Shown here: positions 2,738-25,620 of the stretch, piece after piece | Position numbering within the stretch: the stretch's first letter is position 1 | Layout: each line of letters begins with the position of its first letter | Assembly: GCA_009873635.1 (NCBI GenBank) | Contig: WAHY01000005.1 | Span: 97,564-123,260 of the forward strand | DNA length: 25,697 nt | Source of the DNA: Nitrospinota bacterium | GTDB taxonomy: Bacteria > Nitrospinota > Nitrospinia > Nitrospinales > VA-1 | Direction of reading: 5' to 3' | Program-made: the position numbers and the translations under genes | The notes under the pieces: model-generated | What the model was told of the DNA's origin: nothing | Seen by the model: the letters and a program-made list of their open reading frames with translations, nothing else | Database searches by the model: none

Positions 2738-2841
2738 AAGCGCTGGTAATAATTCTTTGCTCTTCTAGTTTATTACAGCCCTGTTACGAATCCCAATGAA
2801 TAAAGTGGGCTGAAGTCAATGCGGCTTAAAACCGTATTTTA

Positions 2842-3591
2842 TCAGGCCCCTTTGTCTTTATTGCGCAGGGATTCAAACAGGTCAAACGGTATTGGGATAT
2901 AAGTATGCGTTCCCTCACCATTAGAAAGGTCAAGCAGTGTTTGAAAGAACCGAAGCTGTAGTGCCGGCGGATGGGTCCCGATAAGATCTGCGGCATCACA
3001 GGTTTTCTGTGCTGCTTCAAACTCACCCTGGGCATTGATGACTTTGGCCCTTCTTTCCCGCTCAGCTTCTGCCTGTTTTGCTAAGGCGCGTTGCATTTCC
3101 TGGGGCAGGTCTACATTTTTAACTTCTACATTGGCGACTTTAACTCCCCAGGGTTCAGTTTGTTCATCAATGACTTTTTGCAGGTGAATGTTGATCTCTT
3201 CGCGATTGGACAGCAGGTCGTCAAGAGTGCTTTGTCCTAAAATACTGCGCAAGGTTGTTTGAGAAAGTTGGGAAGTTGCATACAGGTAATCCTCCACCTC
3301 AATAATAGCTTTTTGGGCATCGACAACCCGAAAGTAAATTACAGCATTCACCTTTACGGTTACATTGTCTTTTGTGATGATATCTTGTGGTGGAACATCC
3401 ATCACCACGGTGCGGAGGCTGACTTTGACCATTTTCTGCACTCCGGGCACTACAATAATGATTCCAGGTCCTTTGACTTTCCAGAATCTTCCAAACAGGA
3501 AAATAACCCCCCTTTCATATTCACGCAAAATCTTGAACATGCTGAAAACCAGTAGGGCGAGTATTACTAACGGTGTCATTAGAAAGTCCAT
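2842..3591 (-). CDS. SPFH/band-7 domain protein, stomatin-like (QmcA/YbbK-type)
   Basis: The 249-aa ORF has an N-terminal TM helix and then [14 protein letters not shown]...[31 protein letters not shown]...[22 protein letters not shown]...[18 protein letters not shown]. This is collinear with E. coli QmcA and the stomatin core. The C-terminus carries an A/E/R-rich coiled region. Confidence 0.85.
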
Positions 3592-3691
3592 AACGGGTCT
3601 CCTGATAAATTGGATGGCTCTAATTATGATAACAATTTTTGCGGGCCAAGTCCGGGTTTATATTAGACTTTAACGATGTTAGTATGGGTGT

Positions 3692-4501
3692 ATGTTACGT
3701 TTTCTAAATCGTTCTGCGTTAACCCTTGCAGCTTTGTTTTGTATGGTGTGCTCTTCAGAGGCACAACCCCTGTCGGTCTCCATACAGAACCAGGTGGATG
3801 ATGCTGGCAATGTTAAGCTGGAATTAACCTTGAAGAATTCAGGTGCCGAACCTGTTTATCATGTTCACCCGATGTTTCATTTCCACCACTCGATGTCAAT
3901 GATGACGAAAATTATGCGTCTGGATCCGGGGCAGAGCATAACCCTGGAAAACGACAAACATCCACCTGTGATGAGGGTTGGCAGGTATCCCCTGACTGCA
4001 ATGGTGGAATATTGGCTGGAACCCGATGGCGGGACAAAACAGTCGATTCTGGTCACTGACTCATTTTTTTTCAAGGAGCCTGTGGTATCTGAAGTGGATG
4101 GGAGCCTGAAATCCAAGACAGATATGGATTCCTCCATATTGAAAGTGTTTCTTCAAAATCGTTCAGAGTCCCTCAAAAATATAAGGATGATGCTTTTACT
4201 GCCCCCTGGCATAGAAGCGCAGGACTTTTCGGGAATAGTGGGATTTACCATGCGAGGAGGCGAATCAAGGGAGTTTGACATTCGAGTTTTTCGCCGGGAA
4301 AATCAAGAGCAGGATCGTTTTCCCGTACGCTTGATGATAGAATATGGTGAAATGCTTAAGCATTATTCAGAGGAAATTAATGGTTCGGTGAGATTTTCTC
4401 CGGTTTGGTATTCCGTAAAATATTTTCCGCATATTACTGCTTTGGTGATTATGGTCCTGGTTCTTTTGGGCTATTCTTACAGAGTTTATAACCAAAAATA
4501 G
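3692..4501 (+). CDS. Hypothetical exported protein with a C-terminal membrane anchor
   Basis: The 269-aa ORF has an N-terminal signal-peptide-like segment MLRFLNRSALTLAALFCMVCSSEA|QP. The C-terminus has a hydrophobic helix ITALVIMVLVLLGYSY followed by RVYNQK. I recognise no family from sequence. It is the first gene of a same-strand cluster with ppiC, msrA and ccp. Confidence 0.55.
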   Translation: MLRFLNRSALTLAALFCMVCSSEAQPLSVSIQNQVDDAGNVKLELTLKNSGAEPVYHVHPMFHFHHSMSMMTKIMRLDPGQSITLENDKHPPVMRVGRYPLTAMVEYWLEPDGGTKQSILVTDSFFFKEPVVSEVDGSLKSKTDMDSSILKVFLQNRSESLKNIRMMLLLPPGIEAQDFSGIVGFTMRGGESREFDIRVFRRENQEQDRFPVRLMIEYGEMLKHYSEEINGSVRFSPVWYSVKYFPHITALVIMVLVLLGYSYRVYNQK

Positions 4502-4514
4502 AAAGGATAGTTTT

Positions 4515-4793
4515 ATGACACAAGCGACAGCTAGGCATATCCTGGTTAAGTCCAAAGAAGCCTGTGAAGATTTGAAAAAGAAAATTGAGGGTGGGGCGGA
4601 TTTTGGAGATATGGCCAAGGAGCACTCTGAATGCCCTTCAGGAAGAGATGGGGGCAACCTCGGTTCTTTTGGCCCTGGCCAGATGGTTCCCGAGTTTGAT
4701 ACGGTTGTGTTTAATGAAGAAGTGGGTGCTGTCCACGGTCCCGTGCAGACTTCGTTTGGGTATCACCTGATCGAGATCACCAGCCGAAGTTAG
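4515..4793 (+). CDS. ppiC: Parvulin-type peptidyl-prolyl cis-trans isomerase PpiC
   Basis: The 92-aa product HILVKSKEACEDLKKKIEGGADFGDMAKEHSECPSGRDGGNLGSFGPGQMVPEFDTVVF...FGYHLIEI aligns residue-by-residue with E. coli PpiC (Par10, 93 aa). An SD-like aaagga lies 8 nt upstream. Confidence 0.9.
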   Translation: MTQATARHILVKSKEACEDLKKKIEGGADFGDMAKEHSECPSGRDGGNLGSFGPGQMVPEFDTVVFNEEVGAVHGPVQTSFGYHLIEITSRS

Positions 4794-4802
4794 GAGGAAG
4801 CT

Positions 4803-5270
4803 ATGGAATTGGCCACTTTTGGCGCGGGTTGTTTCTGGGGTGTGGAACTGGCTTTTCAAAAGACAAAAGGTGTGACATCCACTTCTGTAGGTTATACGGG
4901 TGGGACCACAAAAAACCCCACTTATGAAGACGTCTGTACAGGGCGCACCGGTCATGCAGAAGTGGTCCATATGGAGTTTGATCCCAATATCATCTCTTTT
5001 GATGAATTGCTTGAAGTGCTATGGACCTGTCACGATCCGACGACATTAAATCGGCAAGGTCCGGATATAGGCACCCAGTATCGTTCCGCGATTTTTTTTC
5101 ACTCACCGGAACAGGAAGTCTCTGCGAAAGCTTCAAGAGATAAAGCGGACCAATCGGGGCGCTTCAATGCTCCAATTGTTACGGAGATTACTCCTGCTTC
5201 AGAATATTATATTGCTGAAGACTACCACCAGAAATATCTCGAAAAACGAGGTATGGGTAGCTGCCATTAG
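4803..5270 (+). CDS. msrA: Peptide methionine sulfoxide reductase MsrA
   Basis: The 155-aa product contains the MsrA active-site signature [10 protein letters not shown], then GYTGG...NPTYEDVC...GHAEVV...FDP and YHQ(K)YL. An SD aggagg precedes the ATG. Confidence 0.9.
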
Positions 5271-5324
5271 AGATTAACGTCTATACTTTGTTTGAATGTT
5301 AATGTTTTGCCTGGGAGATATTTT

Positions 5325-6323
5325 ATGAAATGCATTTCTATTTTTACTCTTGCATGCATTATTGGTTTTTTTCCTGTTTCGACTTTTGCTGAAGATTCAT
5401 TCTATGAGCCCGTCCCGGCCATGAAATATCCATCCGATAATAAATGGTCCAAGGACAAGGAAGAACTGGGGAAAATGCTTTATTTTGATCCCCGGCTTTC
5501 CGGCAGCAACTGGATCAGTTGTGCCACATGTCATAATCCCGCATTAGGCTGGAGTGATGGATTGCCTCGAACCATTGGTCATGGCCAGAAAGAACTGGGC
5601 CGACATTCTCCCACAGTGATCAACAGTGGTTATTTTGCAGTGCAGATGTGGGATGGACGTAAAAAGACATTGGAAGATCAGGCTTCAGGACCCATTGGTG
5701 CGGCGGGTGAGATGAACCAGGATTATGATGAGCTGATTCGGGAATTGCAGGCGATTCCCGGTTACGTCGCTCATTTTGACAAGGTTTTTGGCAAGGATTC
5801 CATCACTATAGATAATGTTGCCAGGGCGATTGCCACCTTTGAACGTTCGGTGGTTTCGAAAAACGCGCCCTATGACAAATACTGGGCGGGAGATAAGACC
5901 GCGATGTCTGCTTCCGCAATAAACGGGATGAACCTGTTTTTTGGCAAGGCCAAGTGCTCCATTTGCCATAACGGCCCGGTGTTTACCGACAGCGGATTCC
6001 ATAATATTGGTGTCAAACCTGCTGGTCCCCTGAAAGTTGACCTGGGAAGATATAATGAAAGCAAAGATGACTTCGATAAAGGAGCATTCAAAACTCCGGG
6101 TTTGCGGAGCATCACAAGGTCGGCTCCTTATATGCATAATGGGACTGAATCAACACTTGAAGAAGTTGTCGATTTTTATAATCGGGGTGGGGATGTGAAA
6201 GAAAATATCAGCCCTTTTATAACTCCGTTGGGATTAAAAGATCAGGAAAAAAAGGATCTGGTTGAATTCTTGAAAGCTTTGGATGGGGAACCCATTCTTG
6301 TTACACTTCCAATCCTTCCCTGA
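5325..6323 (+). CDS. Di-haem cytochrome c peroxidase (CCP/MauG family), periplasmic
   Basis: Two CxxCH haem-binding motifs are present (CATCHNP and CSICHNGP), in the spacing and context typical of bacterial di-haem CCP. The first in-frame Met is at 5292. The signal peptide MKCISIFTLACIIGFFPVSTFA and a gggag SD favour the Met at 5325, so the start is ambiguous. Confidence 0.85.
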   Translation: MKCISIFTLACIIGFFPVSTFAEDSFYEPVPAMKYPSDNKWSKDKEELGKMLYFDPRLSGSNWISCATCHNPALGWSDGLPRTIGHGQKELGRHSPTVINSGYFAVQMWDGRKKTLEDQASGPIGAAGEMNQDYDELIRELQAIPGYVAHFDKVFGKDSITIDNVARAIATFERSVVSKNAPYDKYWAGDKTAMSASAINGMNLFFGKAKCSICHNGPVFTDSGFHNIGVKPAGPLKVDLGRYNESKDDFDKGAFKTPGLRSITRSAPYMHNGTESTLEEVVDFYNRGGDVKENISPFITPLGLKDQEKKDLVEFLKALDGEPILVTLPILP

Positions 6324-13100: not shown

Positions 13101-13349
13101 ATGAGTAAAAACAACGGCTTCCGGCAAGGTATGCAGATTGCGTTCAGATTGGGAACTGAACTGACGGTGGCCACATTGATCGGCGCACTTTTGGGTTATG
13201 GTGTCGATCATTTTTTGAATACGAGGCCTTGGGGATTGGCGATCGGGGTTATATTTGGTGGAGCTGCCGGGTCATTGAACGTTTACCGGGCTGCCATGTC
13301 GCTAAGTAATGAAGAAGATTTGGATGATCACGACAAGAATAACTCCTGA
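13101..13349 (+). CDS. AtpZ/AtpI-family small membrane protein (ATP synthase gene 1)
   Basis: The 82-aa ORF has two TM helices (LTVATLIGALLGYGVDHFL and WGLAIGVIFGGAAGSLNVY). It sits directly upstream of atpB, and its size and topology match the AtpZ/AtpI family. The assignment rests on context and architecture. Confidence 0.6.
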   Translation: MSKNNGFRQGMQIAFRLGTELTVATLIGALLGYGVDHFLNTRPWGLAIGVIFGGAAGSLNVYRAAMSLSNEEDLDDHDKNNS

Positions 13350-13368
13350 ATTTGGTTGGATTTAAAAT

Positions 13369-14100
13369 ATGGAAAGTCCGTTACATCATTTTGAAGTTCA
13401 TAACATTATTCCTATACATATAGGTGGGTTGGATCTATCTATCAGTAATGCTGTTGTGGCGATGTGGGTGGGTTTAGCTGTCATTGCCGGGAGTTTCATG
13501 CTGGTGGTGAATCGGGGAGTCTCTCCCATACCGGGTAAATTGCAGAGCATATTGGAAATTGCCCTTGAGTTTATAAGGGATCTGGTTTTTGAATTTATCG
13601 GTGAAGAAGAAGGCCGTAAATATGTCCCATTTATTGCCAGTTTGTTCCTGTTTATTCTGGCATGCAATCTGATCGGTCTCATTCCAGGTTCATACACCAT
13701 TACCAGTCAACTGGCTGTAACCGGGGCTTTTGCCATTGGTATTTTTATTCTTACCCTTATAATCGGGTTTAGTAAACACGGTGCGCATTTCCTGGGTATC
13801 CTTGTGCCGCCTGGGGTTCCTAAAATTATGGTGCCGTTAATGGTTCCTATCGAAATTATCAGTATGCTGGCAAGGCCTATTTCTCTGGCTGTGCGCTTAT
13901 TCGCCAATATGACAGCAGGGCACACTGTTCTTGCAGTTTTGTTTGGGTTAGCCATGACAGGGCCATTGTGGCTGGGCTGGTTGCCATTTGGATTCACAAT
14001 TATCATTAACGGCTTGGAAATCGCTATTGCGTTTATTCAGGCTTATATCTTCACAACGCTGACATGTGTATATATTGGCGATGTGATCAAGTTGCATTAA
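13369..14100 (+). CDS. atpB: F-type ATP synthase Fo subunit a
   Basis: The 243-aa polytopic membrane protein carries the subunit-a signature ISLAVRLFANMTAGH, which contains the essential Arg. Confidence 0.9.
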   Translation: MESPLHHFEVHNIIPIHIGGLDLSISNAVVAMWVGLAVIAGSFMLVVNRGVSPIPGKLQSILEIALEFIRDLVFEFIGEEEGRKYVPFIASLFLFILACNLIGLIPGSYTITSQLAVTGAFAIGIFILTLIIGFSKHGAHFLGILVPPGVPKIMVPLMVPIEIISMLARPISLAVRLFANMTAGHTVLAVLFGLAMTGPLWLGWLPFGFTIIINGLEIAIAFIQAYIFTTLTCVYIGDVIKLH

Positions 14101-14128
14101 TTTTTTGACAAATACTTAGGAGGAAAGA

Positions 14129-14350
14129 ATGGGTTCAGAAGCTGCTGCATTAATTGGAATGGGATTGTGTGCCGCCGGTTTTTTCGGAGCCGCTTTGGGG
14201 ATCGCGTATATATTTGCGAAAACCATTGAGACGGTTGGGCGTCAGCCTAACGCAGAGGCCCGGGTAGCAAAGTATTGCTGGATCGGTTTTGCGCTGGTAG
14301 AAGCGATCGCGCTGTACGCTCTGGTTATTGCCTTTATCATTATGCCGTAA
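14129..14350 (+). CDS. atpE: F-type ATP synthase Fo subunit c
   Basis: The 73-aa two-helix hairpin has a GRQP polar loop and the conserved carboxylate in ALVEAIALYALV. An aggagg SD lies upstream. Confidence 0.92.
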   Translation: MGSEAAALIGMGLCAAGFFGAALGIAYIFAKTIETVGRQPNAEARVAKYCWIGFALVEAIALYALVIAFIIMP

Positions 14351-14480
14351 AGGGGCTGAAAGCTTTCGCTGGTAAATGGCTTTTTGTGGGTAAGCATTCT
14401 CCCTTCTAGCCGTTGCTCTTTGGTCCCTCGCCAGGTGGCTGGGTACCACCCCCCTTGAATGGACGAATTTTTTTTAAGGA

Positions 14481-15008
14481 TTGGATATGCCTCAATTTGA
14501 ACAGGTGTCTGTTTTTGGCTCACTGATTTTCTGGTCGGTGATCTCTTTTGCTCTTTTATTTTTTCTTCTCAAAAGATTTGCGTTTCCTCCAATTCTGGAG
14601 GCGATTGAGATGCGGGAGAAAAAAATCCGCACTGATATTGAAGATTCAGAGAAACTGAAAGAAGAAGCGCAAAAAATAAAACAGGAGTTGGAGGAAACTC
14701 TAAAAGCCGCGCATGGCAAGGCCGAAACGATTGTGCAACTGGCCCATGATGAGGCCAAGAAGGCTCAGGAAAAAAGTCTTCAGGAAACCGAAGCTAAAGT
14801 CCGTCAGATTCAAAAAGACGCCGAGCAGGAAGTTCAAAGCTCACGCAATAAGCTTCTCCAGGAAATTCGCAGTTACACAGCTGCTTTGACAATTGCTTCT
14901 ACAGAGAAGTTTCTGAAAAAAGCTTTGAATGAAGACGATAAGAAAAGGCTTGTGGAAGAATCCATAGAACAGGTGGTTCAGGAGTTGGAAAAACGTCAGA
15001 GAAACTGA
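14481..15008 (+). CDS. atpF: F-type ATP synthase Fo subunit b
   Basis: The 175-aa ORF has one N-terminal TM helix followed by a long E/K/A/Q-rich helical region. It lies between atpE and atpH. Confidence 0.85.
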   Translation: MDMPQFEQVSVFGSLIFWSVISFALLFFLLKRFAFPPILEAIEMREKKIRTDIEDSEKLKEEAQKIKQELEETLKAAHGKAETIVQLAHDEAKKAQEKSLQETEAKVRQIQKDAEQEVQSSRNKLLQEIRSYTAALTIASTEKFLKKALNEDDKKRLVEESIEQVVQELEKRQRN

Positions 15009-15030
15009 CTTTGACAAATAAGGTAAAACG

Positions 15031-15582
15031 ATGCTTGAAAATCAGGTAGGAAAAAGATATGCCGAGGCCCTTTCCGGGAATATTTCCGATACAGGTACAT
15101 TGGAAAAGGCTCTCGAAAATTTGAGGTCTTTCAATGAGGCCATGTTTACGGAGCCTGAATTGGCCCGTTTTTTTGAGCATCCTTCCATTTCATCGGAAAA
15201 GAAACAAAATGTGGTTAAGGAGATTTGCGACCGCCTGGAGGTAGATGAAAAAGTAACAAACATGATGACTTTGCTCAATGAGCGGGGCAAGGTTTTGTTT
15301 CTGGGCAAGATTGTTGAGTACTTTGAACAAGTAGTAGACCGCCGTTTGAACCAGACACGTGTCCAGGTCACTTCGGCTCATCCTTTGACTACTGAAAACA
15401 TTGACCGGTTAAAAACCGCTCTCAATAAAATTTTAGGAAAAACTATTTTGATCGATACCGAGGTGGATGAGTCGCTGATAGGCGGCATCATGTTGCGCAT
15501 CGGCGACCAAGTGGCGGATGACACCATTCGTAACCGTTTGGAGATCTTAAAACGAACGATAGAAAAAGAGGAGGTAGCCTAA
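15031..15582 (+). CDS. atpH: F-type ATP synthase delta subunit (OSCP)
   Basis: The 183-aa ORF has OSCP-family size and position between atpF and atpA. Its C-terminal LIGGIMLRIGDQVADDTIRNRLE block is typical of the family. Confidence 0.85.
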   Translation: MLENQVGKRYAEALSGNISDTGTLEKALENLRSFNEAMFTEPELARFFEHPSISSEKKQNVVKEICDRLEVDEKVTNMMTLLNERGKVLFLGKIVEYFEQVVDRRLNQTRVQVTSAHPLTTENIDRLKTALNKILGKTILIDTEVDESLIGGIMLRIGDQVADDTIRNRLEILKRTIEKEEVA

Positions 15583-17091
15583 GTGAATTTACGAGCCGAT
15601 GAAATCAGTTCCTTGATTCAAAAGCAGATTGAAGGCTTTGAAGAAGGGATCGAGCTCAAGGAAACCGGACGGGTGATTTCTGTGGGCGACGGAATCGCGC
15701 GTATTTATGGTCTTGGAGAAGCCATGTCGGGTGAACTTCTGGAATTTCCCGGTGGTTTGGCGGGTATGGTCCTCAACCTTGAGGAAGACAATGTCGGAGC
15801 GGTTTTGCTCGGGCGTGATGAAGATATTAAGGAAGGAGATGAGGTAAAGCGAACCGGCCGTATCATGGAAGTTCCTATTGGCCCTGAGCTGGTTGGGCGG
15901 GTTGTGGATGGCTTGGGACAGCCTATTGACGGGAAAGGACCTGTTAAAACCGAAAAGTTTGGACCGATTGAAAGGGTTGCACCCGGTGTTATTGACAGGA
16001 AATCGGTTCATGAACCTATGCAAACAGGTATTAAAGCTATCGATGGCATGATTCCTGTTGGCAGGGGACAACGGGAATTGATCATTGGTGACCGCCAGAC
16101 AGGCAAAACCGCCGTTGCCATTGATACCATTATCAATCAAAAAGGTCAGAACATGTTCTGCATCTATGTGGCGGTGGGGCAGAAACGCTCTACGGTTGCA
16201 CGGGTGGTGAAATCATTGGAACAACATGGTGCGATGGAATATACCATTGTGGTTTCCGCATCAGCCAGTGACCCGGCTCCCATGCAGTTTATCGCTCCGT
16301 ATGCAGGATGTGCCATGGGTGAGTATTTCCGGGATAACGGGCAACACTGCCTGATTGTTTATGATGATCTTAGTAAGCAGGCAGCCGCTTACAGACAATT
16401 ATCGCTTTTATTAAGACGACCTCCGGGACGTGAAGCTTATCCCGGTGATGTATTCTTTCTGCACTCCAGATTGCTGGAGCGGTCCGCAAAAGTCAGTGAT
16501 GAACTGGGTGCCGGGTCCATGACCGCCTTGCCGATTATTGAGACTCAGGCGGGTGACGTATCTGCGTACATTCCGACCAACGTAATTTCCATTACAGATG
16601 GTCAGATTTTCCTGGAAACAGACCTATTTTATTCTGGCGTGCGTCCCGCTATCAACGTTGGTTTGTCAGTCTCTCGTGTTGGTGGCGCGGCACAAATCAA
16701 GGGAATGAAGCAGGTTGCAGGTCAGCTGCGTCTTGATCTTGCGCAGTACCGTGAAATGGCCGCCTTCGCACAGTTTGGAAGTGACTTGGATGCAGCGACA
16801 CAGGCACAACTTAACCGTGGTGAACGACTGGTGGAATTGCTCAAGCAGGATCAATATAAACCCTTGAGCGCAGTTCAACAGATCGTTTCCATATTCTCGG
16901 GTGTTCGTGGGCTGATCGATGATATTCCTGTCGCTGATGTCAAAAAGTTCGAAAATGGTCTTCTCAACTTTATGGAAGACAAGCATCAGGCGCTTTTGAA
17001 TAAAATTGAAGAAGCCAAGAAACTTGATGATGACTCAGAGGCACAGTTAAAAGCAGCTATTGAGGAATTCAAGGGACTTTTTAAAAGTTAA
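15583..17091 (+). CDS. atpA: F-type ATP synthase alpha subunit
   Basis: The 502-aa ORF has the Walker A motif GDRQTGKT. The GTG start at 15583 immediately abuts the atpH stop at 15580-15582. It is highly collinear with bacterial AtpA. Confidence 0.95.
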
Positions 17092-17094
17092 TCA

Positions 17095-19818
<2,724 letters not shown>

Positions 19819-19862
19819 TTCCTTACATTTTAGGCGTTTCCTAAAGTAGTTTACTTTCCGGC

Positions 19863-19940
19863 TTATAGCTTCTTAAAGATCAGAATACCTCATTAAAAAT
19901 CTTTATCTTTATGTATTTTATTTTAATAAAGTTTAGTTGG
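19863..19940. repeat. Copy A of a ~78-nt AT-rich imperfect direct repeat (partner at 24783-24861)
   Basis: Copy A reads ttatagcttcttaaagatcagaatacctcattaaaaatctttatctttatgtattttattttaataaagtttagttgg. Copy B reads ttatagtttcttaatgatcatcatatctcattaaaaaatctttatctgtatgtattttatttttataagattttaatgg. Identity is about 83% overall. The core ctcattaaaaa(a)tctttatct[t/g]tatgtattttatttt is about 38 nt with 1 mismatch and 1 indel. Copy A lies in the convergent gap between atpC and the KamA-like gene, and its last 8 nt overlap the 3' end of the KamA-like CDS. Confidence 0.8.
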
Positions 19941-22194
19941 GTGAATCAGGTTCTAAATTTGTGAACTTCGAAGTGGCTTTGAATTGATATTCAGGATATT
20001 CATATACTGGCATTCGAGGTTCTGTTCTCCCAATAGAATACCCCCAAATACTAGTGTATTCTGAGACATCTTCACCCATTTCTTCAAGATTCTTTAGGTA
20101 TTCACTAATAGATTTGGATTCAATGATAATCACTTTCCCCATTTTATTGATAATGGGGCTGTGTAGTCTATTTGCGTCATGCTCGAATTCCAAAATTCGC
20201 CGGCCATAACGCGTAATTCCAATGACTCTAAATGATAAGCTTTTTCCTATGCCTGGTAAATTGAGGATATTCCGGTCGGTAGATAGAAACGGCAAATTAG
20301 CCGAGCACCTTAACTTCTCTATATTCTTCACCATATTTTCAGCTTCAAGTGAAAATTGGTGGATTTTTGATTTAGTTTTTTCAGGGAGCAGACCAAAAAC
20401 CTTTTCTTCCATTTGTTCTTGAACAGCCCGCGCATTGGTGGCAAAGTTATGTTGGTTCTCCATATATCCTTTTGTGGAAAAAGTGTAGTATCCAAGCACT
20501 CCGATTTTATTCAAGATTTTTCTGAGTTTGGCAGTATGGCCTCTTCGTGAAGATGCCGTGGTCAATACATGTTGGTTGGTTAAAGTCCATCCCGCGGAAA
20601 TAAGTTTTCTGATTCCTTCCCGGGCTTCAGGGGTTACTTCCATCGGGCATTCAAAATGAGTTTGTACGAAGAATTGTGTGATACCGATTTTGGATGCCTT
20701 GGATTTGAATTCGGCCAGAATTTTGACAAGTTTATTGGTGATTCGTTGAGGAATATAGACCGGAAGGCGCGTTCCCAGCCTGACCCGAACGATCTCGGCA
20801 TATTTGTCGCCCTCATTCCTTGATTTATTTGCCTCTTTTTTCCGGGTGGCCATTTGATAAATAGCCTCCAATACCTCATGAAGAGACTTATCCGAACTCA
20901 TCAAGGCATCACCGCCGGTAATTAAAATATCCCGAAGCTGTGAATCGTTTTCAAAATAATCCATCAGACACTTCAGTTTTTCAGGCCAGGTTTTCTTAGG
21001 TTGAAGTTTATTCAAATCAAAATTAAGACGACCACTTTGAAAATCGTACATTCTTTGACAGGATTGGCATAAACCCCCACAGGCTCTGCCTACAGTATCC
21101 GGGATCAAAATAGCGACTTCGGGGTAACGCCTATGAACGTTGTTGTGTGTGGGCAATAACCAACCGGCCGCGTTAGGTTTTCCAGGTTCAACTTTGTCTT
21201 CTTTCTCCCAAGCCACGATATTGCCGAATTCTTCGACAAGTTGTTTGCTATAAATTACATAATCCCTAATGGCCAAATCCGCTCCAATGGCAAAGTATGG
21301 GGCCTTGATATGGAGTAAAGATAAGTAGTAAGGGTTTACAAAAAATGGTACCCCCGCGTTTTTTGCGCTTTTTAAAATTTGCATTGTGTCCGGGTCGAGC
21401 GAGTATCCAAGCATTTCATTCAACAGGCCGGGAGAACGTATGGCAAAGTTGAGATGAAAATGGCTGTCATTCCACCATTTCATTGCGGTTGAATATTTCT
21501 CTTCTGGTGACAGACCTGGTTCAAACTTGAAACTTCTACTGGAAATTTCGCCATTTTCCATTTTGGCAATTATAATTTTAAGTATTCGCTCCTTATTTTC
21601 TTCCCTCAATTGGACGATTCGAGAATCAAGGCCGGAAGGCCATCGATCCATCCACTTCTCAATCATGTTTCTGGTTGGAGGTTGATGAGCCATTTCTCCC
21701 CTCAGTTGCCTGAATAAATAAATCATGTCTTCAAAAAAATAAGGTTTAGCTCCTCCGATCCCATGTCTCGCTGCCAGCCAAACCATCTTGATGGGGTTAT
21801 TGATAGCAATTTCACCTCTTAAATTTAAGTCTTCAAATTCCCTTCCCGCGTTATTGATATAGTCCAGTAACCTTATTGATGCATAATCCGGCCATTTGAT
21901 AGACTCGAACGTTTTTCTATCAACATATTCCTTTTTATAAAAATCTAGTGCTTCAGGGTTTTCTTCAAGAACTCCCATGATCCAGTTTCTAACTTCCTCA
22001 AGCGCTTCAATTTCATTTTTTGTTTTTTTCATTATTTTATCTAAATCGGGATTTTCCTGAAGGAGTTGTTTGAGCAGGTTATGTGATTTGGGATCTATGG
22101 AGATTTTATCCAACTCTTGGTTGCTTGGAGAGATATCATCACATCTTTTCATAGAAATGGTGGTCGTTTGCAACATGGTTTTCCTCGTTTTCAT
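19933..22194 (-). CDS. KamA-family (lysine/amino-acid 2,3-aminomutase-like) radical-SAM protein, unusually large, with about 225 aa of extra N-terminal and about 130 aa of extra C-terminal sequence
   Basis: The 753-aa ORF has a central region that matches hallmark KamA blocks. VPFFVNPYYLSLL corresponds to ITPYYLSLI of clostridial LAM. HRRYPEVAILIPDTVGRACGGLCQSCQRM corresponds to [26 protein letters not shown] and contains the CX3CX2C motif. LRDILITGGDAL corresponds to VRDVLLSGGDAL. The N-terminal ~225 aa and C-terminal ~130 aa match nothing I recognise. The first ATG has no SD. The second Met (residue 7) is preceded by aggaaa, so the true start may be 22176. Confidence 0.8.
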   Translation of the reverse strand: MKTRKTMLQTTTISMKRCDDISPSNQELDKISIDPKSHNLLKQLLQENPDLDKIMKKTKNEIEALEEVRNWIMGVLEENPEALDFYKKEYVDRKTFESIKWPDYASIRLLDYINNAGREFEDLNLRGEIAINNPIKMVWLAARHGIGGAKPYFFEDMIYLFRQLRGEMAHQPPTRNMIEKWMDRWPSGLDSRIVQLREENKERILKIIIAKMENGEISSRSFKFEPGLSPEEKYSTAMKWWNDSHFHLNFAIRSPGLLNEMLGYSLDPDTMQILKSAKNAGVPFFVNPYYLSLLHIKAPYFAIGADLAIRDYVIYSKQLVEEFGNIVAWEKEDKVEPGKPNAAGWLLPTHNNVHRRYPEVAILIPDTVGRACGGLCQSCQRMYDFQSGRLNFDLNKLQPKKTWPEKLKCLMDYFENDSQLRDILITGGDALMSSDKSLHEVLEAIYQMATRKKEANKSRNEGDKYAEIVRVRLGTRLPVYIPQRITNKLVKILAEFKSKASKIGITQFFVQTHFECPMEVTPEAREGIRKLISAGWTLTNQHVLTTASSRRGHTAKLRKILNKIGVLGYYTFSTKGYMENQHNFATNARAVQEQMEEKVFGLLPEKTKSKIHQFSLEAENMVKNIEKLRCSANLPFLSTDRNILNLPGIGKSLSFRVIGITRYGRRILEFEHDANRLHSPIINKMGKVIIIESKSISEYLKNLEEMGEDVSEYTSIWGYSIGRTEPRMPVYEYPEYQFKATSKFTNLEPDSPN

Positions 22195-22503
22195 TTTTAC
22201 GAGGGAGCATGATAGAAAATACCCGCACCCAATTCATCAGGACTATAAAATCTAATAAATTTAAGTGATCAAGAAAAGCGGATATGTAAAACAGGCTTAT
22301 CTATAAGATTATAAAATTTTCATTTTATTCCCTCTCTATAGATAAATATGACCCTGCTTTTAATTCCAATAGAAAAATAATATTTTGAAATTACTCATCC
22401 TCAAAATAAATATTGGTTTGCAATTAATCTTTTAAAAGCTAAGGATAAAATATGAAGAAGGCCAAACCCCATACGGTGGAGGTATGGAGAAATAAACTTT
22501 AAA

Positions 22504-23718
22504 TCAGGCGGTTTTTTTCATGAGGTGGCTGAAAGAGTGATACAACTTTTGCATCGCCAGCGGTGACAGTACCGTCGTGAATGCGATGACGATGACCATG
22601 CCTGCATAAATCTCGTTGCTGAAGATTCCACTTTCTCTACCCAGTTCGGCGAAGATGAGTCCCACCTCACCGCGGGGGACCATGGCAGTGCCAATGATCC
22701 AGCGGATCGGCAACGATTCCTTAATAAACCAGGGGCCGACCAGTTTGCCGACCACTGCCACGATCAAAAGCACCATGGAAAAGACCCAGATGAAAGGAGA
22801 ACTCCAGTCGATCTCGCGCAGGTTTAAGGATATTCCCACAATAACAAAGAAAATCGGCGTGAACAGGTGGATAATGGATTTCATTTCTGTTTCTATGCGC
22901 TCGGCGAAATTAGGGTCTGCATGCAATGCAACACCAAAAGGCAGAAAGAAACGACGGGATAGAGCCAGTCCTGCTGCGAAACCTCCGAGCAACTCCGGTG
23001 CGCCCATAAAGTGAGCCAGCCAGGCGAAGAGTAGGACCAGAGAAACGATGGTTGTGGGAATCAATCCAGGAATTTCGGTGGTCTTGTTGACATGCTTGAT
23101 GACAGAGGACATTAGCTTGGCCGCCATGGGAGCCAGAAAAAAGAAAACCCCCACGAACGATATGACCTTTCCAGTATTGACCAGGGTTACTCCTCCACCA
23201 ATGGAAAACTCGTATAGCAATGCTAGCAGAATGACACCCATCACATCATCCAGAATAGAGGCCCCCAGTATTATCTGGCCTTCATGGGAGTGATGGCGTT
23301 TGAGATCTGTGAGCACCCGGGCGGTGATCCCAATGCTTGTCGCTGTGAGGGTCCCTCCGATAAACAGAGATTCCAGTAATTCGAGATTGAATATCCAATA
23401 TCCTAAGCTGAACCCGAGCAAAAGCGGCACAGCAAATCCACCCAGGGCTACGATTAACGATTTGCGACTCGACCGCGCCAGTTGGTGGAAGTCGCTTCCC
23501 AATCCCACTTCGAATAAAAGCAGGATGATGCCGATCTCAGCCATGAGCCGAATTGCATCAATGGGTTCGACCCAGTCCAGCAGGCTTGGTCCCAGGGCCA
23601 CTCCTGCTAGTAACTCCCCGATGACTGCGGGTCCTTTACACCTGACGGTCAACTCAGCAAAGACGCGTGCCGTCAGAAGGATGGTCAGGAGGATAAGAAA
23701 AAAGTCGTGGACATGCAT
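22504..23718 (-). CDS. Cation:proton antiporter, CPA2 family membrane domain (NapA/KefB-like, no KTN domain)
   Basis: The 404-aa polytopic membrane protein begins ...LILLTILLTARVFAELTVRCKGPAVIGELLAGVALGPSLLDWV...IRLMAEIGIILLLFEVGLG..., which parallels the N-terminus of KefC/KefB and NapA transporters. Confidence 0.8.
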   Translation of the reverse strand: MHVHDFFLILLTILLTARVFAELTVRCKGPAVIGELLAGVALGPSLLDWVEPIDAIRLMAEIGIILLLFEVGLGSDFHQLARSSRKSLIVALGGFAVPLLLGFSLGYWIFNLELLESLFIGGTLTATSIGITARVLTDLKRHHSHEGQIILGASILDDVMGVILLALLYEFSIGGGVTLVNTGKVISFVGVFFFLAPMAAKLMSSVIKHVNKTTEIPGLIPTTIVSLVLLFAWLAHFMGAPELLGGFAAGLALSRRFFLPFGVALHADPNFAERIETEMKSIIHLFTPIFFVIVGISLNLREIDWSSPFIWVFSMVLLIVAVVGKLVGPWFIKESLPIRWIIGTAMVPRGEVGLIFAELGRESGIFSNEIYAGMVIVIAFTTVLSPLAMQKLYHSFSHLMKKTA

Positions 23719-24035
23719 GGATGCTCCGAAATTATTTAAATCGCTACGTTGTAAGACAAGATTATTGTTGAAATTATTTCATAATAATACTCTTTCTTTC
23801 CGCTCAACAGATAAAGCTAAGAACCTAAGAGACTTATAGTCGCCATTTAAGCTCTAGCAAACTTTCTTGAACGTAAGACCCAGCTTTATGAGAAAGTGCT
23901 ACTGTTAGACGCATCGGGCGATACGTCAGGAAGTAGGGAATAATTATTTTTAAATAATATCTTATATAAAGAAGACAAAAATCATCTGTTTGAATATAAC
24001 GTTTTTTTAAAGTTTTTTGTTTAAGGAGGTTTTTT

Positions 24036-24440
24036 ATGAATAGTATTTATGAGCACATGAGTTCGCCTGTCTTATTTATAGGTTCAGAATTAAAGGCGAA
24101 GGATGGAATTGCAAAAATGATTAAAAATAATATTTCTTCCTTACTAGTAAAAAAAAATGGGAAGTATGTCGGTATATTAACAAAAACAGACTGGGTTGAT
24201 ATGGTTATTAAAGAGGTATGTGACCCAAATACAGTGAAGGTGTCGGAAACAATGGTCAATCCAATTATTAAAATTGATATGAATGAAACAATGGCGAAAG
24301 CAAGTAGTCTATTTGAAGAACGTTATATACGTCATTTGGCAGTCACTAGAAACGATGAGATTGTTGGAATATTGTCAGTAAAGGACTTAGAAAAATACTA
24401 TTGTCAACTACACGACAAAGTTGGTATTGCCCATTATTAG
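24036..24440 (+). CDS. CBS-pair domain protein
   Basis: The 134-aa ORF has a strong SD aaggagg. Two CBS-like units are recognisable (...IAKMIKNNISSLLVKKNGKYVGILTKTDWV... and ...ASSLFEERYIRHLAVTRNDEIVGILSVKDL...). It has very AT-rich codon usage, unlike the core genes. Confidence 0.65.
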   Translation: MNSIYEHMSSPVLFIGSELKAKDGIAKMIKNNISSLLVKKNGKYVGILTKTDWVDMVIKEVCDPNTVKVSETMVNPIIKIDMNETMAKASSLFEERYIRHLAVTRNDEIVGILSVKDLEKYYCQLHDKVGIAHY

Positions 24441-24464
24441 GTTTAAGAAATTTAGAGGTGTTTT

Positions 24465-24718
24465 ATGAGTTTTCGATTAATAGGTAAAAATATTGAACTA
24501 ACAGATGGGATAAGAAACCACTTAATTAATAAAATAAGCAAAGTCATGAAAAATACGAAACCAGGTGCTAACTTGCGTTTATCCATTTGTCTACTGAAAA
24601 ATCGCCATATAGTCACGCTATTTTGAAGCAAAATAGAGTGACTATGTTTGCAGTAGATGAGGCTAAAGGCTTTTATACATCTGCGGATAATGTTCTAAAA
24701 AAATTTGAGAAAAATTAA
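24465..24718 (+). pseudogene. hpf: Short ribosome hibernation promoting factor (hpf/yfiA family), interrupted by a frameshift
   Basis: Frame A (24465-24626, stop TGA) encodes MSFRLIGKNIELTDGIRNHLINKISKVMKNTKPGAN..., which matches the HPF N-terminus (compare M.LNI.G.N.EIT.A.R..V..K..KLE). A frame shifted by one nucleotide (open 24572-24718) encodes ...IHLSTEKSPYSHAILKQNRVTMFAVDEAKGFYTSADNVLKKFEKN*, which matches the HPF/YfiA C-terminal half (..VVLKVEK.THTSDATLHV.GGEIHASAEG.DMYAAID.LIDKLARQ). The frames must switch between about 24560 and 24585. An SD agaggtg precedes the start. Confidence 0.7.
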
Positions 24719-24782
24719 AAAACACAAAGCACGTGCTCAAAATATCAAAAGACAATTGCCCAAAAAAATTCAACACTCCTCA

Positions 24783-24861
24783 TTATAGTTTCTTAATGAT
24801 CATCATATCTCATTAAAAAATCTTTATCTGTATGTATTTTATTTTTATAAGATTTTAATGG
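24783..24861. repeat. Copy B of the ~78-nt AT-rich imperfect direct repeat (partner at 19863-19940)
   Basis: See copy A for the alignment. Copy B lies about 65 nt downstream of the hpf-remnant stop, in the convergent gap before the 25159-25620 minus-strand gene. Confidence 0.8.
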
Positions 24862-25158
24862 AAACCCGCCGATCCGAATTTCTATATATTGGCAAGGATG
24901 ATAGTTAAGAAACCGAATGCTCTGTTAGCAATTTAATGCATAGAGTTTTACAGCGGACTTCCTTTAAAATATTAAATAATGTCAGATACTATTTACAGAA
25001 ATTTGTTTGTCGTAGGCTTCTATATGATCATTTAAATATTTAGCAATACCTCCCCGCAATAAGACCATGCATATTGAATGTCAATTGTTTGATATTTTCC
25101 CCGCTTTATTAAATAGTAAGTAGCGAGCTGATTACGTTTGATAGAACTACTGAAAAAA

Positions 25159-25620
25159 TTATTTTGAATTAGGACAACAATCTTCTTGGCAATTAGGGTG
25201 TGGATGATTACCGTTTAGTTCTTTGCTACCATTTGATAAGGAAAAAAAAATAAAAAACAAGTTATAAAACATAATCATTATTGAAACAGCAGTAAGACCT
25301 GAAAATAAAATAAATAAAATTGTATCTCTATAACCCGCTAAAGAAGTACCCACCAAACCTAATAAACCTAAATTATGTAAATAGAAATGGAGTTTGACGC
25401 CATTTGGCCATGGTATTTGACGAGATGCAAAACGGGGAAGCACATGATATGAAACGCCTGCAATCATCATGACCATAAAGCCTAATAAGTTTATGTGTAT
25501 ATGAGCAAAACTAAATTGAGTTTTAATAACTGGGTTAAAACTTATCCCTACACCAAAAGAAACACCGATTATCAAATAAACGAGTGAAGTTTTAATAAAT
25601 AGTTTTGGGTATTGATCCAA
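25159..25620 (-). CDS. Small (153 aa) 4-TM membrane protein with a His/Cys-rich C-terminal tail and a possible heme-copper-oxidase-like helix motif
   Basis: A TTG start is preceded by an aaaggag SD at optimal spacing. There are four hydrophobic helices. The segment FAHIHINLLGFMVMMIAGVSYHVLPRF resembles helix VI of cbb3/NOR-type heme-copper oxidase subunit I (...[23 protein letters not shown]...). The C-terminal tail NGNHPHPNCQEDCCPNSK is rich in His and Cys. It lies in the AT-rich region. Confidence 0.55.
   Translation of the reverse strand: MDQYPKLFIKTSLVYLIIGVSFGVGISFNPVIKTQFSFAHIHINLLGFMVMMIAGVSYHVLPRFASRQIPWPNGVKLHFYLHNLGLLGLVGTSLAGYRDTILFILFSGLTAVSIMIMFYNLFFIFFSLSNGSKELNGNHPHPNCQEDCCPNSK

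Follow-up and report, generated by a model that had tools for sequence, protein, structure and literature searches.

Two AT-rich direct repeats bracket 4.9 kb of DNA downstream of the atp operon in a 25,697-nucleotide stretch (hereafter the window) of a marine Nitrospinaceae metagenome-assembled genome (MAG), and we read them tentatively, with a probability of about 0.45, as non-coding relics of one ancestral flank, which would survive in two diverged copies at the recombination junctions of a lineage-specific patchwork. The source lineage is an abundant, uncultured marine nitrite-oxidiser, Nitrospina-like. The bracketed interval is not one insert; it is pieced together from at least four modules whose native neighbourhoods in relatives all differ. 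The relevant features, in window coordinates, are as follows.

19411..19818, plus strand: atpC, which ends the atp operon (13101-19818), recognised by Pfam matches
19840..19940, no strand assigned: copy A of the repeat (U_A), strong part 19863-19934, near-identical block 19889-19924
19887..19932, minus strand: weak hairpin in copy A, stem of 12 bp rich in A/U (19921-19932 with 19887-19898), loop of 22 nt
19933..22176, minus strand: KamA-family radical SAM gene, long form, 747 aa, relocated or acquired
22199..22289, minus strand: relic of a second COX1-like gene, a pseudogene fragment joined immediately upstream of KamA
22452..23788, minus strand: CPA2 (Na_H_Exchanger) module, gene 22504-23718, recognised by Pfam
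23931..24440, plus strand: CBS-pair protein gene (24036-24440, Pfam) with a conserved upstream element (23934-23969)
24456..24750, plus strand: remnant of a broken hpf (ribosome hibernation factor), weak Pfam match, frameshift at a 68-nt palindrome (24590-24657)
24760..24861, no strand assigned: copy B of the repeat (U_B), strong part 24783-24861, near-identical block 24809-24845
24807..24853, minus strand: equivalent hairpin in copy B, stem 24842-24853 with 24807-24818
24862..25158, no strand assigned: AT-rich spacer of unique sequence, from copy B to the stop codon of the COX1-like gene
25159..25620, minus strand: intact COX1-like gene for a small membrane protein of 153 aa, 77% nucleotide identity to L081 and 75% to L087

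Over their full extent, copies A and B match at 75 of 96 positions with one gap (blastn E value 4e-18, search space 800 x 800 nt). A preliminary description had reported direct repeats of ~78 nt, and this unit (19863-19940 and 24783-24861) was recovered in the same orientation with 68 of 80 columns identical (85%) and a GC content near 20% in both copies (18-21%); similarity to its left is weaker and reaches 19840 and 24760, and the right flanks of the two copies are unrelated (score 20 versus a shuffle mean of 19.2). The resemblance is confirmed as a genuine repeat, far above chance even for AT-rich DNA as had been claimed: the local score of 55 compares with 12.8 +/- 2.2 and a maximum of 25 in 2000 dinucleotide-preserving shuffles, and a search of the window for the core pattern with up to three mismatches gave exactly two matches, 0 being expected. 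The 38-nt near-perfect core described previously corresponds to a 37-column block with one indel and one mismatch, but a permutation test on mismatch positions gave p = 0.07, and a specially conserved core within the unit is not established. As the arrangement was found in at least five independent assemblies, it is not an assembly artefact.

Both copies lie, as first described, in gaps between convergent genes, 3' of atpC and of the hpf remnant: copy A between the atpC stop (19818) and the KamA stop (19933), and copy B between the stops of the hpf remnant (24718) and the COX1-like gene (25159). U_A fills its gap up to the KamA stop codon (19933-19935), which its right edge touches, and U_B starts ~10 nt past the end of the hpf-derived sequence and is followed by the 297-nt spacer. 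The boundaries coincide with breaks in homology to relatives. Around U_A, 95% nucleotide identity to L003 continues until the atpC stop codon, the left limit of strain-shared DNA, and homology to L079 and L081 ends at the KamA stop, the DNA that follows in L079 being different despite 96% identity within KamA; U_B starts where hpf homology ends. That both units are bounded by such breakpoints supports the reading of the units as junction relics.

As noted before, the enclosed segment varies in composition (GC 30 to 50%), and its parts trace to different relatives. The KamA-family protein scores 155 bits against NCBIfam TIGR00238, under the 199-bit cut-off; its gene in relatives lies between a Cob_adeno_trans gene and Fer2/DnaJ genes or directly after a COX1-like gene, with a contiguous series of outer-membrane protein (OMP), COX1-like and KamA genes in L081. 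It is 96% identical at the nucleotide level to L079 (Ga0105012_1020180), a short metagenome contig with internal repeats that could be chimeric, though the atp genes of that contig are only 78% identical; this disparity indicates a recent exchange of the KamA module and, judged from nucleotide identities, shows KamA to have moved between lineages that differ by 22% in their atp genes. The COX1-like fragment beside it matches the window's own COX1-like gene at 51 of 71 positions (25432-25497), L081 at 67 of 95 and L079 at 84 of 91. The CPA2 module is 86.5% identical to L082 across exactly 22452-23788, with unrelated neighbours there (ADH, NifU and CstA). The CBS gene has 76% nucleotide identity to L087-L096, in which OMP, COX1-like and CBS genes follow each other on a single strand; an identical CBS protein is encoded on a 131.7-kb contig of an NCBI Nitrospinae MAG. 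The hpf remnant retains 39% identity over 107 aa to the intact hpf of L078 (tblastn E value 3e-16), and hpf adjoins COX1-like and KamA genes in relatives. atpC and the hpf remnant also share 28 nt in frame at 82% identity (19622-19649 and 24624-24651), at an offset of 5002 and not 4920; since the sequence on either side is genuine atpC in one case and genuine hpf in the other, the match was put down to chance. Beyond the window end, the COX1-like gene is preceded by a putative outer-membrane protein gene (299 aa) and an IS481-family DDE transposase pseudogene. The latter lies ~2.3 kb to the right of copy B, outside the pair and just past the window end, and the window itself holds no integrase or transposase gene, in agreement with the earlier observation that none lies between or beside the repeats.

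Comparison with the closest relatives revealed that the whole region is strain-specific. In L003 and L005, which are 95% identical in the atp genes, atpC is followed by a 60-nt gap and then uvrA, and the atpC-uvrA intergenic DNA has no similarity to the units (scores 10 and 8; shuffle means 8.5 and 8.3). L003 lacks both copies along with everything else to the right of the atpC stop, and the strain-specific DNA reaches ~5 kb beyond copy B. The empty site with a single unit that an insertion of the whole block would predict was thus absent from L003, which has uvrA after atpC and no unit. The more general proposal of a mobile, variable piece of chromosome was borne out both by this strain specificity and by the exchange of KamA between distant lineages. 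In L079, another insertion adjoins atpC, between direct repeats of 42 nt in which the 3' end of atpC and a tRNA-Lys-like fragment are included; this suggests that the atpC-side site is insertion-prone.

The order of features on the minus strand is one ground for interpreting the units as relics of a duplicated flank. The series in which a COX1-like sequence is followed by a unit occurs twice: first as the intact COX1-like gene, the 297-nt spacer and U_B, and then as the COX1-like fragment, KamA and U_A. In the simplest history, two related COX1-like/KamA clusters with their 3' flank would have been brought side by side, either because the segment was duplicated or because a related lineage donated a second cluster; reciprocal decay would have removed KamA from one copy and most of the COX1-like gene from the other, and the CPA2, CBS and hpf pieces would have been inserted between them. 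Under such a history, the units would not be the limits of a mobile element and would need no present function, and homologous recombination could act on their 37-nt near-identical block, through gene conversion between the copies or rare deletion of the 4.9 kb. The divergence of the two COX1-like sequences (72% identity) is comparable with that of the two units (78-85%). Whereas U_A is 100% identical across four strain-level assemblies, U_B is polymorphic at 24846 (T/A) and 24851 (G/A), where the alleles of L001, L002 and L086 are copy A's bases, and these two clustered polymorphisms are compatible with gene conversion. The lack of an open reading frame, an Rfam family and a terminator in the units points to their neutrality. 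Against the relic reading, the history needs several events and is not unique, the KamA comparison leans on a contig that could be chimeric, and the 297-nt spacer, which has no similarity to KamA, to the flank of copy A or to any relative, preserves no trace of the KamA gene supposedly lost there. Neither was unit-like sequence found downstream of KamA or COX1-like genes in relatives, including L079; at 73-83% coding identity, however, the intergenic DNA of relatives may simply be unrecognisable.

Other origins of the repeat were weighed against the same evidence. The units could belong to a small family of dispersed intergenic repeats (REP-, MITE- or BIME-like), native to the genome or to AT-rich donor DNA, which would have further members at other loci and would occupy gaps between convergent genes because these tolerate insertions; we consider this unlikely while giving it real weight. 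Such families typically show ~15-20% divergence between copies, as is the case here, and the units also fit in their small size, lack of coding sequence, strong AT bias and imperfect palindromic symmetry, and in lying between convergent genes at the junctions of rearranged modules. In addition, repeats often promote recombination and short-read scaffolds tend to end at them, and the short-read scaffold L085 stops within the U_A core at 19905. However, only two copies were found in ~32 kb of the source genome, with none in roughly a dozen other intergenic gaps of the window and none in ~130 kb of relatives' DNA; the unit is not related either to the junction fillers (22268-22451, 23789-24035 and 24862-25158) or to the gaps between genes in L070. 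Exact-core scans of 596 Gb of species-representative genomes, a metagenome collection and IMG/VR returned 12, 48 and 1 matches, all in unrelated taxa and with flank scores of 19-31 versus 54-55 for A against B, i.e., chance matches without flank similarity, and BLAST against phages and plasmids gave only a 38-nt match of 89% to an Acinetobacter phage or chromosome, which does not extend. The alignments revealed no terminal inverted repeats or flanking target duplications, only an internal imperfect 12-bp inverted repeat, and no RAYT or associated transposase was seen. The small dispersed family proposed at the outset is neither shown nor excluded by these searches, which covered ~32 kb of the source genome, ~130 kb of relatives' DNA and the collections; the literature on Nitrospinae islands yielded nothing relevant. 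Very improbable, in our judgement, is the suggestion that the units are attL/attR-like scars of an old insertion, in which the 4.9-kb block entered as one circle by site-specific or Campbell-type homologous recombination that duplicated the unit. It would explain why direct repeats bracket DNA missing from a 95% identical relative, why the block of highest similarity is central, where a crossover region would be expected, and why copy A adjoins the 3' end of a conserved gene, and the repeat-flanked insertion beside atpC in L079 offers a parallel. The suggestion was not supported by the comparison, since the enclosed DNA is a mosaic of modules differing in composition and origin, the relative's site has uvrA as its neighbour and no unit, and the window has neither an integrase nor a tRNA or tmRNA gene (ARAGORN), the IS481-like relic lying outside the pair. 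The variable DNA also continues past copy B, and ~70% similarity extends outside the core, which is unexpected for att arms. Elements mobilised by dif/Xer (IMEX) carry at both ends 28-bp sites with a XerC arm, a 6-bp centre and a XerD arm; no dif-like 28-bp site was present in the window within 3 mismatches of the gamma-proteobacterial consensus, which may not be that of Nitrospinota. An integron attC site was rejected by eye, because the gene block is oversized and has genes in both directions, and copy B lacks the boundary motifs.

The remaining alternatives assign a function to the units. They may be 3'-end RNA elements of the minus-strand CPA2-KamA and OMP-COX1-like transcripts, with a weak A/U hairpin that would either terminate transcription in a non-canonical way or stabilise the 3' end, a reading that we hold to be improbable. 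The hairpin, scored as a 56-nt segment, is formed on the minus strand only (copy A: -7.6 kcal/mol, z -1.97, versus -1.8 kcal/mol, z +0.95, on the plus strand) and starts one base past the KamA stop; both copies lie downstream of minus-strand operons, and the loop is the best conserved part. Three sequence variants keep it; between the copies, both sides of one pair differ (compensatory), a single side of another differs (compatible) and a third pair is broken. Nevertheless, its stability is low, copy B reaching only -4.5 kcal/mol (z -1.1) and the L001 allele -5.6 (z -2.1), and 10-11 of the 12 stem pairs are A/U or G/U, leaving no more than one or two GC pairs around a loop of 22-23 nt. With only three sequences, the covariation is not significant (170 of 500 shuffles do equally well), and whole units fold no better than shuffles (z between -0.6 and +0.3). 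The distance from copy B to the nearest stop codon is 297 nt, and the sequences downstream of KamA or COX1-like genes in relatives share no comparable hairpin. An intrinsic terminator consists of a G+C-rich stem-loop followed by a run of U, and no GC-rich stem with a T-run was detected in or near either unit, so that the proposed terminator or 3'-UTR family is not supported as a classical terminator. The suggested Rfam search produced no relevant match, neither at the gathering score across the window nor at E values up to 10 in 19700-25200, where the only two matches were obvious chance ones outside the units. The sole promoter-like match relies on bases outside the conserved part of copy B. 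Six-frame translations contain stops in every frame across both copies; tiny open reading frames of 6-8 codons in both were rejected for want of ribosome-binding sites and a downstream gene. We give little credence to the broader idea that the unit is an undescribed functional element of marine Nitrospinaceae, kept by selection as a module-joining recombination site or as a strand-specific A/U hairpin 3'-end element common to KamA and COX1-like transcripts.

The practical value of these findings is modest. They identify the flank of the atp operon as a recombination-prone spot at which close relatives differ by whole gene modules, and the repeat pair could drive further rearrangement or loss of the KamA/CPA2/CBS block. 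The repeat is also an assembly hazard, at which a short-read assembly already breaks, and the locus calls for caution in annotation, as clean direct repeats around a gene block alone are not proof of a mobile unit.

The units can be compared with several known systems. Like the attL/attR sites of integrase-borne islands, they share one orientation, bracket variable DNA, have a central best block and include a copy 3' of atpC; in contrast to such sites, they are accompanied by no integrase or tRNA gene, differ by 15-20% and resemble each other beyond the core, and the locus is a multi-origin mosaic with variable DNA beyond the pair and no copy at the relative's site. With REP/BIME and MITE-like repeats, they have in common their short, non-coding, imperfectly palindromic nature, their position at convergent 3' ends and a similar divergence, whereas they are A/T-rich rather than GC-rich palindromes, number two, lack terminal repeats, target duplications and a RAYT or transposase, and have no matches in other genomes. 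Intrinsic terminators and 3'-UTR stabilising hairpins likewise follow stop codons in convergent gaps and are strand-specific, but here the stem is nearly all A/U, the loop is 22-23 nt, no U-tract follows and the energetics are marginal. From a segmental duplication with reciprocal decay, the locus differs in that no intermediate or ancestral arrangement has been observed, the spacer bears no trace of KamA, and foreign CPA2, CBS and hpf pieces lie between; the likeness consists of two collinear pairs of COX1-like sequence and unit, in the same orientation and with comparable divergence, one of which retains the COX1-like gene and the other KamA.

The two copies of the AT-rich, non-coding unit lie in the same orientation, and their similarity was confirmed: 68 of 80 aligned columns (85%) are identical between 19863-19940 (copy A) and 24783-24861 (copy B), with a GC content of 18-21%. 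Weaker similarity extends leftward to 19840 and 24760 (75/96, one gap; blastn E 4e-18); the right end is sharp, and the flanks past 19940 and 24861 are unrelated. The local score of 55 lies far above 2000 dinucleotide-preserving shuffles (12.8 +/- 2.2, maximum 25), so AT-richness does not explain the match. The preliminary description was therefore correct in its observation and in its claim that the resemblance exceeds chance, and a chance origin of the pair is excluded. A 37-column block (19889-19924) contains one mismatch and one indel, and the window has just two matches to its core pattern even when three mismatches are tolerated; the special conservation of this core, earlier given as 38 nt and nearly perfect, is statistically insecure (permutation p = 0.07).

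An identical AtpD protein was found on one NCBI MAG contig (L001; GCA_009874485.1, WAHX01000050.1), which matches the window at 99.8% identity, and also on a number of contigs from ENA, JGI and Logan; among these, L002, L004, L084, L085, L070, L071 and L086 come from ENA or Logan. The metagenomes were sampled from the marine water column, and by its named homologues the organism belongs to Nitrospinales/Nitrospinaceae. As the full arrangement with both copies recurs in independent assemblies, an assembly artefact is ruled out. The short-read scaffold L085 (THRA17-1_SAMN05791317) terminates at window position 19905, within the near-identical block of copy A, suggesting that the repeat breaks short-k-mer assemblies. 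Strain L002, 99.5% identical overall, carries dense SNP patches at 16344-16827 and 17431-17673 (atpA/atpG) that look like short recombination tracts inside the atp operon. Between the atpI-like gene and atpB, L001 has ~227 additional bases (5190-5416), to which window 13288-13414 aligns twice, owing either to tandem duplication or to an artefact in one of the two assemblies.

The 4.9-kb interval had been considered as a possible single insertion with att-like scars, but comparison with relatives splits it into a patchwork of modules.

Modules of the interval and its surroundings (window coordinates)
to 19818: atp operon, 95% identical to contig L003, homology ending at the atpC stop
19819-19932: unique DNA with copy A inside
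19933-22289: KamA module (KamA-family radical SAM gene, 19933-22176, minus strand)
22452-23788: CPA2 antiporter module, 86.5% identical to L082
23931-24440: CBS module (CBS-pair protein gene and upstream element), 76% identical to L087-L096
24456-24750: broken hpf gene (ribosome hibernation factor); intact hpf adjoins COX1-like and KamA in L078
24760-24861: copy B
24862-25158: unique spacer
from 25153: module of the COX1-like small membrane protein gene (25159-25620, minus strand) and the putative outer-membrane protein (OMP) gene

Past the atpC stop, L003 has a 60-nt gap and then uvrA, with no unit. CPA2 is neighboured in L082 by ADH, NifU and CstA, and L087-L096 carry OMP, COX1-like and CBS in this order on one strand. 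KamA lies directly after OMP and COX1-like in L081, and in more distant Nitrospinaceae between a Cob_adeno_trans gene and Fer2/DnaJ. Low-GC strain-specific DNA extends ~4-5 kb past copy B, so the repeats do not mark where the variable DNA begins and ends, and none of the relatives reached has the single-copy empty site by which a duplicated target site was to be recognised.

Several further features were observed in and beyond this region. The hpf remnant contains a 68-nt near-perfect palindrome (24590-24657; arms 24590-24600/24647-24657 and 24609-24625/24629-24645) exactly at the reading-frame break, as though an inverted duplication had inactivated hpf. A 28-nt in-frame match between atpC (19622-19649) and the remnant (24624-24651), 82% identical and encoding NRVT[IM][LF]A, differs in offset by 82 nt from the repeats and is probably due to chance. 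Past the window end, L070 carries an IS481-family transposase pseudogene (4347-5250; window-equivalent about 27.2-28.1 kb, 27196-28099), split into HTH (104 aa) and rve (142 aa) pieces between a 299-aa OMP-like gene and a rubrerythrin gene; L002 short-read contigs terminate within it. Upstream of the 299-aa gene, in the OMP/COX1-like operon leader (L070 about 5620-5715, outside the window), two ~30-nt direct repeats (GATCCACCC..TTTCTACCTCCTA.G) lie ~60 nt apart. After the low-GC stretch, L070 1-2694 (also outside) encodes a protein of >898 aa with multicopper-oxidase-like copper motifs, and GC returns there to ~48%, where the AT-rich variable region probably ends on the right.

A second collinear pair accompanies the units. 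At 5-20 nt upstream of the KamA start, a ~90-nt internal part of another COX1-like gene (22199-22289, minus strand) has been fused in. This fragment shares 51/71 positions with the intact gene of the window, 67/95 with L081, in which COX1-like is followed directly by KamA, and 84/91 (92%) with L079. Thus, the minus-strand order of COX1-like and then unit is present twice, once as intact COX1-like, a 297-nt spacer and copy B, and once as COX1-like fragment, KamA and copy A. The two pairs have diverged comparably (identity 72% for COX1-like, 78-85% for the units).

KamA is 96% identical between the window and L079 (JGI Ga0105012_1020180, 1-4188), whereas atpC/atpD are only 78% identical, which indicates recent movement of KamA between well-separated lineages. 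Homology terminates exactly at the KamA stop, so that one exchange breakpoint falls at the right edge of copy A. Next to atpC, L079 has a 1074-nt insert with a 195-aa gene between two copies of a 42-nt direct repeat (2373-2414 and 3447-3488). The repeat consists of atpC 3'-end sequence plus a tRNA-Lys-like fragment, suggesting that insertions occur readily at this end of atpC. Part of the KamA interior is also present in L079 as a 137-nt inverted copy (2403-2539). The contig is short and contains internal repeats; it may record a recent transfer together with an insertion beside atpC, or it may be a chimera. No Pfam family matches the 747-aa KamA-family protein at E 0.01, and its score of 155 bits against the NCBIfam KamA cut-off of 199 comes from residues 230-590 only, leaving the N-terminal 230 and C-terminal 150 residues unmatched; it has >8000 homologues of ~730-750 aa in many phyla.

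We consider it possible, with a probability of roughly 0.45, that each unit is what remains of the 3' flank of a COX1-like/KamA cluster once present in two diverged copies. Such copies may have arisen by segmental duplication or a second acquisition and then decayed reciprocally, while pieces of CPA2, CBS and hpf would have recombined in between; the units would be junction DNA requiring no function. The 37-nt near-identical block could be a substrate for gene conversion or deletion. Copy B is polymorphic at two nearby positions (24846 and 24851), where other strains carry exactly the copy A bases; this fits gene conversion and, equally well, an ancestral state with two clustered mutations. 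Against the relic history, the unit was not seen downstream of KamA or COX1-like in any relative examined, no KamA trace was found in the spacer 24862-25158, and several separate events are required. A small dispersed repeat family agrees with the form and position of the units and is a less probable alternative; a third copy was sought with profiles and BLAST but was absent from the window, the 6.7-kb rightward extension (L070) and ~130 kb of related loci. An exact 21-nt core scan yielded only chance matches (12 loci in species-representative genomes, 48 in metagenome contigs and 1 in IMG/VR), all single, in unrelated taxa and without flank similarity, from collections evidently without the source species.

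Of the earlier suggestions, a classical terminator is rejected, as no terminator-like hairpin occurs in the units. No Rfam family matches them, and whole-unit folding on either strand is no better than shuffles. No ORF is open across both copies, and the window contains no dif-like site by the gamma-proteobacterial consensus, which may not be the host's. The one structural feature of the units is a hairpin that forms on the minus strand alone, with a 12-bp, almost purely A/U stem and a 22-23-nt loop (arms 19921-19932/19887-19898 in copy A and 24842-24853/24807-24818 in copy B). In copy A it begins one base past the KamA stop codon, no more than a hint of a role. A functional 3' hairpin appears improbable, since its energetics are marginal (-7.6, -4.5 and -5.6 kcal/mol for three variants; z -2.0, -1.1 and -2.1) and its single compensatory change is not significant with three sequences. 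Still less probable are att or Campbell scars of one 4.9-kb insertion, given the mosaic interior, the lack of an integrase and of any tRNA in the window, the relative's site without a copy and the variable DNA continuing past copy B.

The feature is an ordinary rearrangement by-product in a flexible part of the chromosome; at most, it is a low-copy repeat. The unit is not a new kind of element; it belongs to a kind already known, that of diverged intergenic duplicates at recombination junctions.
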